From a phage, in NCBI GenBank assembly GCA_027337125.1, contig GCA_027337125.1_3057.1: a stretch of 64,000 nt of DNA, one strand, 5' to 3'. Numbering within the stretch: the stretch's first letter is position 1; each line of letters begins with the position of its first letter. The translations under genes and the position numbers were made by a program. Below the pieces are notes generated by a model. That model did no database searches. It was given only the letters and a program-made list of their open reading frames with translations, and was not told the DNA's origin. Positions 47,224 through 52,060 of this stretch are shown here, in pieces.

Positions 47224-47880
47224 TTATTTAGCCCTTCCTAATATTCTGGCCGCCTGAGCACATATTGATTCAAGGCGGTCATTACTTATATGATCATTTC
47301 TATACCAGTACATGGTTATTGTTCCAGCATAGATATTATCCAAATTGAAATATGGACAACTGTACATGTAGTTTATTTCGGGAGTAGGCTTTTTAGTTGG
47401 TAAAAAAGCAAATTTTGAGTTGGAATAATAATGACGTCCATTTAAATGAACTGTATATTCATCCATAGTTTTATCAACAGGATATCCTCCAAGTGATTTT
47501 TCACTTATTGTTGAAGGTAATTTTCCTTCATATGCTATAATATCGACAAAATAGTTTAAGTTTTTAGGGCGGAAAGAATACACCGCACTAAAGTCTGCCT
47601 CAGATGATATGTGAACTATCTGGAGTTGTTCCAGGGCGACAGATTCAAAGCGTGCATTTCTTTCCTTTTCAATAATTTCACTGTATGTTTCATACTTTGA
47701 TTGCTTATAGTACTCAAAGAAACTATCTCCCCTATACCAAACAATCGCCATCATAAATAAAAGAATTACGACAGCTACCCGGGAAGCAAGAACTTTCCCG
47801 GTAGCATTATCTTTGAACAAGCGATCTAGAACACCAAACAGAATACCAGAGGGCGAAAGTGATATTCTAGGTGCTGCCAT
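47224..47880 (-). CDS. t: T holin
   Basis: 218 aa; MAAPRISLSPSGILFGVLDRLFKDNATGKVLASRVAVV... matches recalled T4 holin; one N-terminal TM segment. Confidence 0.95.
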   Translation of the reverse strand: MAAPRISLSPSGILFGVLDRLFKDNATGKVLASRVAVVILLFMMAIVWYRGDSFFEYYKQSKYETYSEIIEKERNARFESVALEQLQIVHISSEADFSAVYSFRPKNLNYFVDIIAYEGKLPSTISEKSLGGYPVDKTMDEYTVHLNGRHYYSNSKFAFLPTKKPTPEINYMYSCPYFNLDNIYAGTITMYWYRNDHISNDRLESICAQAARILGRAK

Positions 47881-47899: not shown

Positions 47900-47907
47900 T
47901 ATTTATA
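47900..47907 (-). promoter_or_regulatory. late promoter TATAAATA upstream of t
   Basis: Exact late consensus on the - strand about 20 bp upstream of the t start. Confidence 0.65.
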
Positions 47908-47925
47908 ACTGAGAGGTATTATCGT

Positions 47926-48711
47926 TTAAATCCAGGAGCCGTAGATCGTGCCTGTAGCACCCCATGACGGTGAACTTCCGAATACTGCTCTGCCAGGAGC
48001 ACCACCGCCAGATCTAGATAAGTGATTACCCCATCCATCTCCGCCCCGACCTCCAGCATCACCGCCATTGCCTCCGCCGAATTGGGAAGTGTAGCCGGCA
48101 CCGCCCGGCGCGTCATAACTAGCATTACCACCCGGCCAATTAACGCCGCCTCCGCCGATGCCAAATGGTCTACCGCCACCGCCACCTGCTGTAGCATTTG
48201 GCGCCCAGCTATTCTTTAATGACACTGCACCACCACCGCCACCGCCTGATGCAATAACGCCATAGTTCCAAATACGAAGTCTTCCGCCGATATCATTTTG
48301 GATTACATCGCCGCCATTTGTGCCTGGGTTTCCATTTACGCTACCGTTACCACCTCGTCCCCACATATGAACTCCACCATGAATATTCAAAGTAACATAT
48401 TCATTTGGTGTATCTCCGTACATGAAGAATAAAGGAACGTCTCTAGAATATGATACCAAATTTCCAGTGATATTAAACACTATAGGTGCACTACCTGCCT
48501 CAAAACATCTATCTCGGAACCATTGACCATTGAAGTTATGGTCTGCTCCAAGTGTGTGAATTACTTCAACAGATCGACCTATCATATTACTCATCCAAAA
48601 TGGAGTACCCATTCTTAATCGTTGGGCCGCGCCGCCCATCCAATTTTGTCCTGTATTAACTACTGCAGACGATCCTACCCACGGTCCTGTTACTGCCATA
48701 TAAACCTCCAA
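47926..48711 (-). CDS. 38: gp38, long-tail-fiber tip adhesin (T2/T6 type, glycine-rich motifs)
   Basis: 261 aa; conserved N-terminal region then poly-Gly blocks (GGGGGG, GGGGG, GGGG) separated by variable segments. Confidence 0.85.
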
Positions 48712-48724
48712 GGGGCCGAAGCCC
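48711..48724 (-). other. UUCG hairpin (GGGGC-uucg-GCCCC) in the gp37-gp38 junction, followed by the GGAGG RBS of gene 38
   Basis: Perfect inverted repeat between gp37 stop and gp38 start. Confidence 0.45.
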
Positions 48725-48730
48725 CTCTTA

Positions 48731-51700
48731 TTATTTTAACAATGATTTAACTAATGCTTTAAGTTCTTCAATTTCTGATTTAAGTTCCGCAATTTCTGCA
48801 GTATGCTCATTGATTGCAGCTGTATTTAAACCAATTACACCGTTATAGTTCAAACGAAGTAAAGCTTCGCCATCAGGGTCACCTTCAACTAATTCAGGCA
48901 AAATAGCTTGAACTTCTTGAGCTATCAAACCGGCGTTTGGTTCCCATTTCTGATTACCTTCTTCATCTAGGCCTCGCTTCTGCATATAAGTGTAACCATT
49001 AATTTTTGAAAGCTTCTCAGAAGCATTTTCAAATTTAACTAGGTCCTTTTTGACACGAATATCAGAGCGGACATAAACATCGCGGACATATGTTGAATAG
49101 TTGTCATTCGCCTGAACTAAATGACCATGAGAAATAACTGCTTTGCCAACTTCTGTCCACAAAGCACCGTTTGTCTCCCAAAGGCCAGGATGAGAATGAT
49201 AAGATGAAGACCATGAAGCTATATGCACTCCATTTGCAACCATATTGATTCGGCCGTCACCACCGTGAACTAATCCAGTATCATTATCACCAATAACAAG
49301 ACACGGTCCAGTCCACACCGGGTCGCCACCACCAGCTGATAATCTTGCTCCGGTTTTAACCATGTTAGGAACATACATAACTCCATTGTGGTGAAATTCA
49401 TAGATAGCTTGTGGGTCAGAACCGTTTTCCTGGTTACCTACACAAATAATACCTTGTGCCCAGTTATTAGTAATGCGTCGCATACCAAAATCTACGCCGG
49501 AAAAATATCCTTCGTTAGTAATACCAGATTTTCCTTTAATAATAGGATAATAGCAGTCATTGCTGACGGATCCAAAATCTACAAATATAGGAGCTTCTAA
49601 ACCCCATTGGTCACCCCAGGCGCCAGATTTATGCGCAACCCATTGTGTACCGTTTATATGAAGGCGGTCTCTATTAAAATTAAATGTTCCTTGACCTTGA
49701 GGAGAAAGCGATATTTCGCCATTATTTGTTATGTATACACCGCCTTGTGTAATGTAACTATAAAAACCTAGACCATTGTCGCCGCCGCCTTTGCCTATAT
49801 ACCAGTTACCTGTACCACCTACATCACTACGGATGTGCGATGAAGCACCCACGCCTGCAGTTAAAACAAGGGCATCATTTCCAGCAGATAAAGTCAACTT
49901 ACCGGTCATCGTATCGCCTTCTTTAGCAACACGAGTAGCTATCGCATCGCGAATATTTGTAGTGTCTCCCGCAGAAGTAAACGATTTCCAAATATCTGAG
50001 AAAATATTACCATTGCGAGCAATAGTAGCTTCACCGCCGCCGACCTGAACGTTATCGGGGAAATTAACTGTACCATCAGCATTAAATCTTGATGTATGGC
50101 CCTGTGAACCATCTTCTTTCAGATGATGAATAACGAATGTACCCGAATTAATTTCAGTACCTAAAGACCAAACGGCTTTACCATTTAAAAACTTCTGTTT
50201 AACAATAGGATAATATTTGCTTATAGCATCATCATCAATTTCCTGGAAAATAGGAGCCGCTTGAACATATTGAATATCATAACCACCAGCGCCTGCGCCA
50301 TGACCAGTAAATTTAATATAGCCGTTTGCCGCGAACGTATTGTAACTTGATTGTAAATCTGGAATAGTAACTTTACCAGTATCTAAAGCTATACTAAACG
50401 GGCGAAGTGGACCGATATCACCATTTTTACCTTCACCGTAAGCAGTTGGAATAATATGAAGACTGCCTTCTGAACGTCTAAAAATGGCTCCGTAATCATT
50501 ATTCCAAATACGAAGACCATTAACAGCATTTGTAGTGATTTCGCCAAGGGTGTGAACTGCTCGGTCAACCCAAATATCCTTTTTTGCAATAATATTTTCG
50601 TTAATTGTCTGTTGACCATTTAATACGGCTTCAACTGTATTATCTTTATTTCGTTGAATATAATGCATCCATCCAATATCATCAGAAATTTCCATGACAT
50701 TTTTACGGGTGCCTTCACTTGGATTAGTAAAAGTATTTCCCCAAACAGCTATATACATGTTATCAACGGAGCTTTGACCCATGGTATAGCCTTTAAACAT
50801 TAAAGTTGAATTATTATTTCTACCATCAATATTAACAGAACCGCCAATAACATCAATATTACCTGGAGTAACTAACAAACCGCCGTGAGTATTAATGTTT
50901 GTAGTACCTTTACCGCGGAAATAGTGATGATAATTACCGCCTTGATAATATCCTAAAAGAGTCTGACCGTCACCGTATGCGTTATTATCATGGTAAGTAA
51001 CAACAGTGGCTAATGCATAGTTTTCAGTCGGAGGAGTAGTTAAATCTGTTCCATTAGTAGAATATCCAGCTACAAATTTTCTTAGGCTAGTTGTTTCGCT
51101 AGGGCTAAATAAAAATGTTTTCGTTCCATTATTGACGCTGAAATAATATCCATCCTGATGCCATTTTAGCCCGGTATCATTATCGCCAAGAGAAATTGAA
51201 GCAGTCCCTAATTCAGAGTATCCTTTATTGCCACCAGGAGTACCAACAGAAATAGAATGGCCTGCTTTCAATCCACCGGACCAGGTAAACGACCAAAGAT
51301 AGGCATCTAACCCGTCACCGGCGTACCAGGTTATCCCGTCGTTATCTTTAACTTCATGGAATATACCAGATCCTACGGCATTTCGCATAACACGGAGGTG
51401 GTTAATAGCCGTTTCGCTTTCTGCCAATGGAGTGTTATTTGCTAATGAAGATATATCATAATCGCCCGTCTTCTTCCCATCTGTAATAACTTTATCGGTC
51501 AGAATTTGTGGAGACGAAATAGATTTCCATGCTGATACTTCAGGTGAAGTAAATAGGCCACTGCCTGAAAATGCATAAGTGCTTTCATCACCAGCGGCGT
51601 AGTCTTGAACCCTGATATTAAGTACTTGTGTAGTTAAACCATCATTAGCCGGGGCATAAATGATTCCGCGTTCGCGACTATTGCCATCGAAAAAACGAAC

Positions 51701-52060
51701 ATGTGCTGTACCTGAACTTTTTGTAATAAGTTCACCGCCTTCGGTCATAATCTGCCCGGCGGCAATAATATCGCGAGTTACTCGAGCAATACCAGTTAAA
51801 TTAAAATTACCTGTCTGAGTGAAAGTGCCATTTAAAGTATAATCACCAGTTTGATTATAGTTTCCTGTATGAATAACATTCCCGTCAATGCTACCGCCTT
51901 TAGCAAAACCCAGATCAATAATATTTCCTTGGTCGTCTTTAGTAAAAAGTACGCGGTCTTTTAAGTTTATAGCCAATTCACCTTCGGCTAATACTGAAGC
52001 GGCAGGACGTGCTCCTGCAGTTTTGCTTCTTTTAAATTGTATTTGTTTTAAAGTAGCCAT
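48731..52060 (-). CDS. 37: gp37, distal long tail fiber subunit with C-terminal intramolecular-chaperone-like domain
   Basis: 1109 aa, Gly/Thr/Asn-rich fibre; C-terminal about 110 aa begin at SDIRVKKDL and end in a coiled-coil; position after gp36. Confidence 0.9.
48734..49066 (-). other. gp37 C-terminal intramolecular chaperone (self-cleaving) domain
   Basis: Motif RSDIRVKKD...NYNGVIGL... plus terminal coiled-coil resembles the autoproteolytic chaperone domains of other phage fibres; T2-type gp37 is known to be C-terminally processed. Confidence 0.55.

Follow-up and report, generated by a model that had tools for sequence, protein, structure and literature searches.

A probable T2/S16-type receptor-binding tip of a Tequatrovirus long tail fibre, with a gp38 adhesin predicted to recognise OmpF and a putatively self-cleaving gp37 chaperone domain

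The variable segments of the adhesin gp38 carry the receptor specificity of the long tail fibre. The module made up of gp37 and gp38 is already known as a standard host-range determinant, and solved structures and mapped receptors exist for T2-type relatives. In phage S16, whose gp38 binds Salmonella OmpC, the tip is built from two proteins (gp37-gp38, PDB 6F45), namely a gp37 trimer with a cleavable chaperone, the autoproteolytic release of which has been shown, and gp38 as a monomer that carries Trp prongs and a polyglycine-II (PGII) sandwich. The sequence suggests that the present phage shares this plan. The cleavage site of S16 gp37 is DLNVS^SDRRIKK (PMC7917993), and a docking role has been described for the three Trp prongs of gp38 (PMC6851490). 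The receptor of phage RB51 was identified as OmpF by RB-TnSeq, and both RB51 and RB69 require OmpF together with FhuA and the LPS core (Trojet et al.). OmpF and LPS form the receptor of fPS-2, while FL31 depends on OmpF/TolC and shows a drop of only one log on deletion of ompF. The receptor can be changed by very few residues in this family, since the substitution Q206L in an RB51-type gp38 redirects it from OmpF to OmpW (bioRxiv 10.64898/2026.04.02.716166), and SV76 compared with T2 is another case of a receptor change by a single loop substitution. In the swap between CM8 and EV240, porin specificity was switched by a segment of gp38 that extended from HVS2 onwards.

The window, by which we mean the whole stretch of 64,000 nucleotides analysed, very probably encodes the receptor-binding tip of a Tequatrovirus long tail fibre of this T2/S16 type, with a gp38 adhesin, a self-cleaving gp37 chaperone and OmpF as the predicted receptor. 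This assignment rests directly on the order of the genes, on the families to which the proteins belong, on conservation at the level of single residues and on near-identity with adhesins already characterised. What we infer for the present phage from its homologues is that gp37 is cleaved, that gp38 adopts the PGII fold, docks on the fibre and is present in virions, and that OmpF is the receptor. The genes stand in the order 36-37-38-t-asiA, which RB51, RB69, T2, T6 and S16 share, with gene 38 immediately following gene 37 and preceding t:

48731-52060, minus strand: gene 37, long tail fibre distal subunit, 1109 aa followed by tandem TAATAA stops (PHROG 1699 'long tail fiber protein distal subunit', E = 0)
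47926-48699, minus strand: gene 38, receptor-recognising adhesin, 257 aa and stop codon (Pfam, PHROG 2056 and relatives)
47224-47880, minus strand: gene t, holin, which follows gene 38 as a conserved neighbour (Pfam Phage_holin_T, E 1.8e-116)

The start codon of gene 38 is ATG, at 48699, and the final base of its stop codon is 47926; a TTG at 48711 marks only the mechanical start of the open reading frame. The exact protein has already been deposited (NCBI EKH7476279.1). It matches the Pfam families GP38 (PF05268; 277.7 bits, E 1e-82) and Gp38_N (PF21721; 77.2 bits, E 9.5e-22), each with a cut-off of 25, as well as PHROG 2056 'tail fiber protein; host specificity' (E 9.5e-108) and the solved adhesins PP01 gp38 (9v85, E 2e-74) and S16 gp38 (6f45_D, E 7e-51). 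NCBIfam holds no model for gp38 or gp37. Two parts can be delimited in the protein:

48580-48699, minus strand: N-terminal attachment domain, residues 1-40, by the PF21721 match, with the Trp prongs W7, W20 and W35
47929-48360, minus strand: specificity domain and core of the GC-rich island, residues 114-257, with Gly-rich motifs and hypervariable loops, aligned to 9v85 and 6f45_D

The three tryptophans are invariant across 10 aligned adhesins, including that of S16. Glycine makes up 25% of the whole protein and 34% of residues 110-257, and the GC content over residues 114-257 is 0.56. Runs of glycine occur at residues 152-157, 172-176, 182-185, 208-210 and 231-233. The first-pass annotation had proposed a T2/T6-type architecture for gp38, with a conserved N-terminal attachment region followed by poly-Gly motifs that are separated by variable loops. 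This was borne out, with exact coordinates, by the two Pfam matches and the PP01 and S16 structures, by the Gp38_N domain with its invariant tryptophans and by the adhesin alignment, in which the five Gly runs are invariant and the loops between them diverge. By analogy the C-terminal half of gp38 would fold as a PGII sandwich.

The other half of the module lies at the C-terminus of gp37:

48734-49066, minus strand: intramolecular chaperone / Peptidase_S74 domain, gp37 residues 999-1109 (PF13884 and S16 alignment)
49049-49066, minus strand: putative catalytic-dyad segment S999-D-I-R-V-K1004, Ser codon at 49064-49066 and Lys codon at 49049-49051
48734-48835, minus strand: heptad-repeat helix, gp37 residues ~1076-1109, presumed trimeric coiled coil (heptad register)

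The Pfam family Peptidase_S74 (PF13884) is found at residues 999-1058 (48.5 bits, cut-off 22; E 1.1e-12). The domain matches S16 gp37 (6f45_A, E 8e-44; tail alignment, E 2.9e-34) and is 100% identical to those of RB51, FL31 and PP01. The motif SDIRVKKD corresponds to residues 999-1006 (49043-49066), and the Ser999 codon begins at 49066. Ser999 and Lys1004 align within SDRRIK of S16 and also with positions 49 (Ala there) and 54 (Lys) of the MyRF chain 7dc3 (E 0.019). These two positions would correspond to S587 and K592 of MyRF, which are equivalent to S911/K916 of endoNF and define the dyad (PMC8326128). Features in common with the endosialidase and MyRF chaperones are the Ser-x4-Lys dyad, cleavage right before the Ser (predicted here) and a trimeric coiled coil at the C-terminus (presumed here), but the relation is distant, as the E value indicates, and the domain here caps a tail-fibre beta-helix that later receives an adhesin. 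The scissile bond is predicted to be Arg998-Ser999, between nucleotides 49067 and 49066, where DVYVR^SDIRVKK lines up with the cleavage site of S16; the cleavage context is thus R^S here, whereas it is S^S in S16. For the ~35 C-terminal residues of gp37 one heptad register is clearly the best, with 8 of 14 strong hydrophobics at a/d (a = I,I,I,I,V; d = L,L,L) compared with 2-6 in the other registers. A single-sequence AF2 model of the tail, of low confidence overall (mean pLDDT 47.8), shows one long terminal helix with pLDDT 71-78 there. The earlier proposal that gp37 ends in a domain resembling autoproteolytic chaperones, marked by SDIRVKKD, is therefore upheld at the level of sequence, and the heptad register fits the coiled coil that was also proposed.

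In the mechanism that we propose, gp37 would form a trimeric beta-helical fibre, with its own 111-residue C-terminal intramolecular chaperone serving as the template. Once the trimer has folded, the Ser999/Lys1004 dyad would cleave between Arg998 and Ser999 and the chaperone would depart. This would expose the ...DVYVR tip, to which one gp38 monomer could dock via its N-terminal three-helix domain and Trp7, Trp20 and Trp35. The Gly-rich motifs would then form the PGII sandwich, from which five projecting loops would bind an outer-membrane porin.

The loops were named A-E by the framework of PP01 gp38, in which loop A is W119-I124. HVS numbers of Trojet et al. were not assigned to residues 120 and 162, as the text of that paper gives no boundaries.

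48325-48342, minus strand: receptor loop A, residues 120-125, mapped from PP01, with Ser120 at 48340-48342
48190-48219, minus strand: receptor loop B, residues 161-170, aligned, with Lys162 (AAG) at 48214-48216
48079-48093, minus strand: receptor loop D, residues 203-207, with the OmpF/OmpW switch residue Gln206 (CAA) at 48082-48084
48013-48039, minus strand: receptor loop E, residues 221-229, same as in the OmpF group

When the variable segments were aligned with those of adhesins of known receptor, the best agreement was with the OmpF group. RB51, RB69 and FL31 each share 33 of the 35 loop residues with the present gp38, compared with 12 for T2, nine for PP01, eight for T6 and two for S16, and the OmpF group (RB51/RB69/FL31/fPS-2) has exactly the same loops C, D and E. 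Overall identity is 70% with PP01 gp38, the receptor of which differs (OmpC of E. coli O157), and ~50% with that of S16. The closest characterised adhesin is RB51 gp38 (ACP31167.1; the GenBank RB68 record is identical), which also has 257 aa, is 98.1% identical and has the same N-terminal attachment domain; the gp37 chaperone domain and the 37-38 intergenic region of RB51 are identical to those of the present phage. Five substitutions lead from the present gp38 to that of RB51 (T32I, N80D, R86K, S120T and K162Q), two of them in loops A and B. The laboratory stock of RB68 has the same gp38 backbone with Leu206 and is OmpW-specific, but the present gp38 keeps Gln206, the OmpF state. Since its loop set matches the adhesins of RB51, RB69, FL31 and fPS-2, the primary receptor of the present phage is predicted to be OmpF, probably with dependence on the LPS core. 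The one-log drop of FL31 and the FhuA and LPS dependence reported by Trojet et al. mean that 'OmpF' may be an incomplete description. The variable segments had also been proposed as the most likely place for a new specificity; novelty was not supported, given the 33 loop residues held in common with the OmpF-dependent group. In practice, sequence alone places the phage in the OmpF-dependent adhesin group.

Many GenBank records name gp38 'distal long tail fiber assembly catalyst', which would make it a T4-style assembly chaperone only, absent from the virion, with the tip of gp37 binding the receptor. This label is however inherited from T4, according to the RB69 record's own note. In Pfam gp38 had no match among assembly-chaperone families, the only families matched at E <= 0.01 being the two of adhesins; its PHROG matches are to adhesin or tail-fibre proteins and the solved structures matched are adhesins capping gp37. 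Moreover there is no T4-type needle tip in gp37, which ends in the S74 domain, cleavable by homology, and in related phages a swap of gp38 alone switches the receptor. A role restricted to assembly is hardly credible here, and gp38 is preferably read as the adhesin. The base composition of gene 38 could also suggest an origin outside the phage. Among 200-nt intervals across the 64 kb, GC content peaks at 0.625 in the one that begins at 48041 (mean 0.352, sd 0.044, z = 6.2; genome GC 0.35), and all 31 intervals of this length with GC >0.5 start between 47881 and 48181. The island that the first-pass annotation had placed at about 48000-48300 is thus real and well outside what chance would give, although slightly wider than claimed. 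Horizontally acquired foreign DNA, rather than an effect of protein composition, might also account for the slight GC enrichment of the non-Gly codons of the island (0.43 against 0.365). Nevertheless the excess lies at codon positions 1 and 2 (0.61 and 0.69), position 3 being at 0.39; glycine takes up 51 of the 147 codons at GC 0.82, as against 0.43 for the 96 others; and the T-even genera that were sampled (Tequatrovirus, Mosigvirus, Dhakavirus and Gelderlandvirus) share the gp38 domain. A foreign origin is very improbable, and the island is explained by amino-acid composition, mainly by the Gly codons already named as its source in the earlier annotation, which provide most of the excess, not all of it.

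The remaining alternative concerns the two loop residues, Ser120 and Lys162, that depart from every OmpF-validated adhesin compared. They could shift the receptor away from OmpF (for example to FadL, as in T2) or alter the OmpF loop variants or hosts that are recognised. Position 120 is Thr in RB51, and Ser is also present in JS10, MN04, UPEC01 and T2. At position 162 the present phage has Lys (AAG) where RB51 has Gln (CAG), Gln being found in all 26 RB51-type adhesins aligned. Both residues equal those of T2 at the aligned positions, and the pair was not seen together in the other adhesins compared. Porin switching by a single substitution is also precedented in the family, by RB51 Q206L and by SV76 compared with T2. 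On the other hand T2 agrees at just 12 of the loop residues overall, loops C, D and E with Gln206 are those of the OmpF group, and the porin-switching part in the CM8/EV240 swap ran from HVS2 onwards. Furthermore the S/T and K/Q changes are conservative, and both residues are known from other E. coli phages, K162 in NHEP11 and S120 in JS10, MN04 and UPEC01. A changed use of receptors is therefore unlikely, and some chance of an altered host range is left because single substitutions do alter it in this family; OmpF remains the predicted receptor. If the two residues did retarget the adhesin, this would be, with RB68 Q206L as the first, the second natural case in which an RB51-type adhesin is redirected by one or two residues of its loops. 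As the sole loop departures from validated OmpF binders, residues 120 and 162 are relevant to host-range engineering and cocktail design.

Lys162 was also considered as unique to the present phage. This was rejected, as a short-query BLAST and alignment show the same AAG codon in NHEP11 (PQ511149.1), whose gp38 is 90% identical overall with an otherwise near-identical specificity domain; unlike the present gp38, it has Thr120, Ala217/Trp218 and a T6-like N-terminal attachment domain. Degenerate-pattern scans of IMG/VR gave no match for the Lys162 allele and none for the Gln162 control, even though the patterns do occur in the window itself and in 12 other loci, so that these scans are uninformative on frequency. 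A metagenome scan for the Lys162 allele was likewise negative. A protein-guided search of IMG/VR yielded 17 relatives, the best 92% identical, which are too few for allele frequencies.

Gene 37 shows 89-92% nucleotide identity to EC128, RB51, PP01 and others, with a mosaic identity profile. Two stretches of gp37 were considered as novel and rejected. The stretch around residues 451-500 has 44% identity to RB51, RB69, FL31 and EC128 but 98% in MLF4, Ec_O157kw, SfPhi01 and others, and nearly all the changes in residues 951-998, by the gp38 docking surface, are present in at least one of RB51, RB69, FL31, EC128 and PP01.

Two elements were recognised between the genes:

48710-48727, minus strand: RNA hairpin between genes 37 and 38, GAGGGGC-UUCG-GCCCCUU (MFE -17.8 kcal/mol, z = -2.66)
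47900-47907, minus strand: late-promoter motif TATAAATA, between gene 38 and gene t (sequence motif)

The hairpin is directly followed by a GGAGG Shine-Dalgarno sequence at 48705-48709, and its stem is conserved in T2, T6, S16 and NHEP11, with both-sided changes at four of the seven pairs. At the site equivalent to that of the late-promoter motif a late promoter is annotated in fPS-2.

The window is T-even (Tequatrovirus) phage genome, with 96.7% identity to Escherichia phage GEP001 over 20000-44000, and its local gene order is the same as in the genomes of RB51, RB69, T2, T6 and S16. The genes concerned are the following:

48731-52060, minus strand: gene 37, long tail fibre distal subunit (gp37), 1109 aa
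47926-48699, minus strand: gene 38, glycine-rich adhesin (gp38), 257 aa
47224-47880, minus strand: gene t, holin

The limits 47926-49066 proposed by the first-pass annotation are exact: gene 38 including its stop codon ends at 47926, and the Ser codon of the motif SDIRVKKD (gp37 residues 999-1006) begins at 49066. The start codon of gene 38 is ATG (48699); the ORF list gives a TTG at 48711, which is a purely mechanical start.

As judged from profile and structure matches, gp38 is an adhesin of the T2/S16 type. Residues 1-40 match Pfam Gp38_N (E 9.5e-22) and residues 45-257 match Pfam GP38 (E 1e-82). The protein also hits PHROG 2056 ('tail fiber protein; host specificity'), and two solved crystal structures align with it, the receptor-binding domain of PP01 gp38 (9v85, E 2e-74) and S16 gp38 (6f45_D, E 7e-51). 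In S16, gp38 docks into the gp37 trimer by three tryptophans (PMC6851490); they correspond to W7, W20 and W35 in the window and are invariant in 10/10 aligned adhesins. Together with the Gp38_N match, this bears out the T2/T6-type architecture with a conserved N-terminal attachment region that had been described. Similarity of gp38 to the T4-type assembly chaperone was not found in the Pfam and PHROG searches. The label 'assembly catalyst' carried by this protein in many records is a T4 inheritance, given that the RB69 record's own note traces it to T4.

The poly-Gly motifs are present as five runs of three to six Gly each, glycine amounting to 25% of gp38 and to 34% of residues 110-257. The GC peak of the entire 64 kb is the 200-nt window starting at 48041 (GC 0.625 against a mean of 0.352, z = 6.2), and in the 64-kb scan every 200-nt window with GC >0.5 starts between 47881 and 48181. 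The excess lies at codon positions 1 and 2 (0.61/0.69/0.39 for positions 1/2/3) and the 51 Gly codons have a GC of 0.82 compared with 0.43 for the 96 non-Gly codons, so the island is a consequence of protein composition, as had been suggested; the Gly codons are its main source, and Ala, Pro, Arg and Trp codons add a little. The glycine-rich region of gene 38 is also crossed by two open frames (47919-48197, minus strand, other frame, 92 codons; 48022-48219, plus strand, 65 codons); both sit in this island, where composition makes stop codons rare, and nothing seen pointed to either being a gene.

The gp37 tail is, by homology, a self-cleaving intramolecular chaperone, with cleavage predicted. 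Residues 999-1058 match Pfam Peptidase_S74 (48.5 bits, cut-off 22) and residues 920-1109 align to S16 gp37 (E 8e-44), which removes its own C-terminal 113 residues by a cut at DLNVS^SDRRIKK (PMC7917993). The window sequence DVYVR^SDIRVKK aligns with this site, which predicts a cut between Arg998 and Ser999 that would free 111 residues. In an alignment with a MyRF chain, Ser999 falls on position 49 and Lys1004 on position 54, which we read as S587 and K592, the Ser position being Ala in that chain. In MyRF these two residues form the catalytic dyad, equivalent to S911/K916 of endoNF, and cleavage occurs immediately N-terminal to the Ser (PMC8326128). The Peptidase_S74 match and the cleavage-site alignment thus support the likeness to autoproteolytic chaperones, and a single, clearly preferred heptad register in the last ~35 residues fits the presumed coiled-coil. 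In an AlphaFold2 single-sequence model of the tail (mean pLDDT 47.8, low confidence) only the long terminal helix is reliable.

Although the first-pass annotation read the sequence correctly and had the right mechanism, its hint of a new receptor specificity is not supported, since the loops are nearly those of RB51, RB69 and FL31. NCBI already has an identical gp38 (EKH7476279.1), recorded only as an Escherichia coli protein and encoded on a contig of 170,267 bp; the window thus probably derives from a complete genome of a lytic T-even phage that entered the database inside a bacterial isolate assembly, as a contaminant or a carried phage, and not as a phage submission. The module is ordinary, with nothing new, and close relatives have already been characterised. 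Identity to the window gp38 is 98.1% for RB51/RB68, 97.3% for FL31 and 96.1% for RB69, and the chaperone domain is 100% identical in RB51, FL31 and PP01. Five receptor loops are defined in PP01 gp38 (PMC12892980); mapped onto the window gp38 they comprise 35 residues, of which 33 are identical in RB51, RB69 and FL31, 12 in T2 (FadL/OmpF), nine in PP01 (OmpC), eight in T6 (Tsx) and two in S16 (OmpC).

RB51 gp38 differs at five sites (T32I, N80D, R86K, S120T and K162Q, window residue first), two of them in loops: Ser120, which opens loop A, and Lys162, the second residue of loop B. At both aligned positions T2 has the same residue as the window. Ser120 is also present in JS10, MN04 and UPEC01. 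Gln162 occurs in 26/26 RB51-type adhesins of one alignment, which first suggested that Lys162 was unique to the window; this was ruled out by the same AAG codon in phage NHEP11. The two residues occur together in the window allele only, among the sequences compared. A host range or porin preference differing from that of RB51 is improbable, the small chance retained reflecting that single substitutions are able to retarget this adhesin family.

The gp37 gene has 89-92% DNA identity to its nearest relatives with a patchy profile, which is the usual T-even tail-fibre mosaic. The most divergent stretch, residues ~451-500 (50560-50710, minus strand), is only 44% identical to RB51, RB69, FL31 and EC128 and six residues longer than in these phages, and reaches 98% identity in MLF4, Ec_O157kw, SfPhi01 and others; the fibre shaft has clearly recombined here. 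Of the substitutions that immediately precede the cleavage site, nearly all recur in some relative.

The predicted receptor is OmpF, on the documented receptors of close relatives and the retention of Gln206 (codon CAA, 48082-48084). RB51 is OmpF-specific by RB-TnSeq, and Q206L alone moves its receptor to OmpW (bioRxiv 10.64898/2026.04.02.716166). In spot tests RB51 and RB69 needed OmpF, FhuA and full LPS core (PMC3157838). FL31 requires OmpF and is affected to a minor degree by TolC (PMC12032242), and fPS-2 uses OmpF and LPS core (PMC7917993).

The GenBank RB68 gp38 (KM607004.1) is identical to that of RB51 and hence has Gln206, whereas the RB68 stock of the 2026 preprint has Leu206 and OmpW as receptor (bioRxiv 10.64898/2026.04.02.716166), so that deposit and stock differ at the receptor-setting residue. 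In Yersinia phage fPS-2 (LR215722.1, 922-924) the Gln206-equivalent gp38 codon 208 is CNA, and the ambiguous middle base is the one at which an A-to-T change produces the RB51/RB68 Q206L switch from OmpF to OmpW; there may be a mixed population at this site in that phage stock.

Between genes 37 and 38 lies a UUCG-tetraloop hairpin (48710-48727, minus strand; GAGGGGC-UUCG-GCCCCUU, -17.8 kcal/mol, z = -2.66), preceded by the tandem gene 37 stops (TAATAA) and followed by the gene 38 ribosome-binding site (GGAGG). It is not terminator-like, as no T run follows. A hairpin is found at the equivalent site in T2, T6, S16 and NHEP11 with differing stem sequences and both-sided changes at 4/7 pairs. 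Between gene 38 and gene t lies the late-promoter motif TATAAATA (47900-47907, minus strand). RB51 and RB69 conserve it, and fPS-2 has a late promoter annotated at this site; T2, T6 and PP01 carry AATAAATA in its place.
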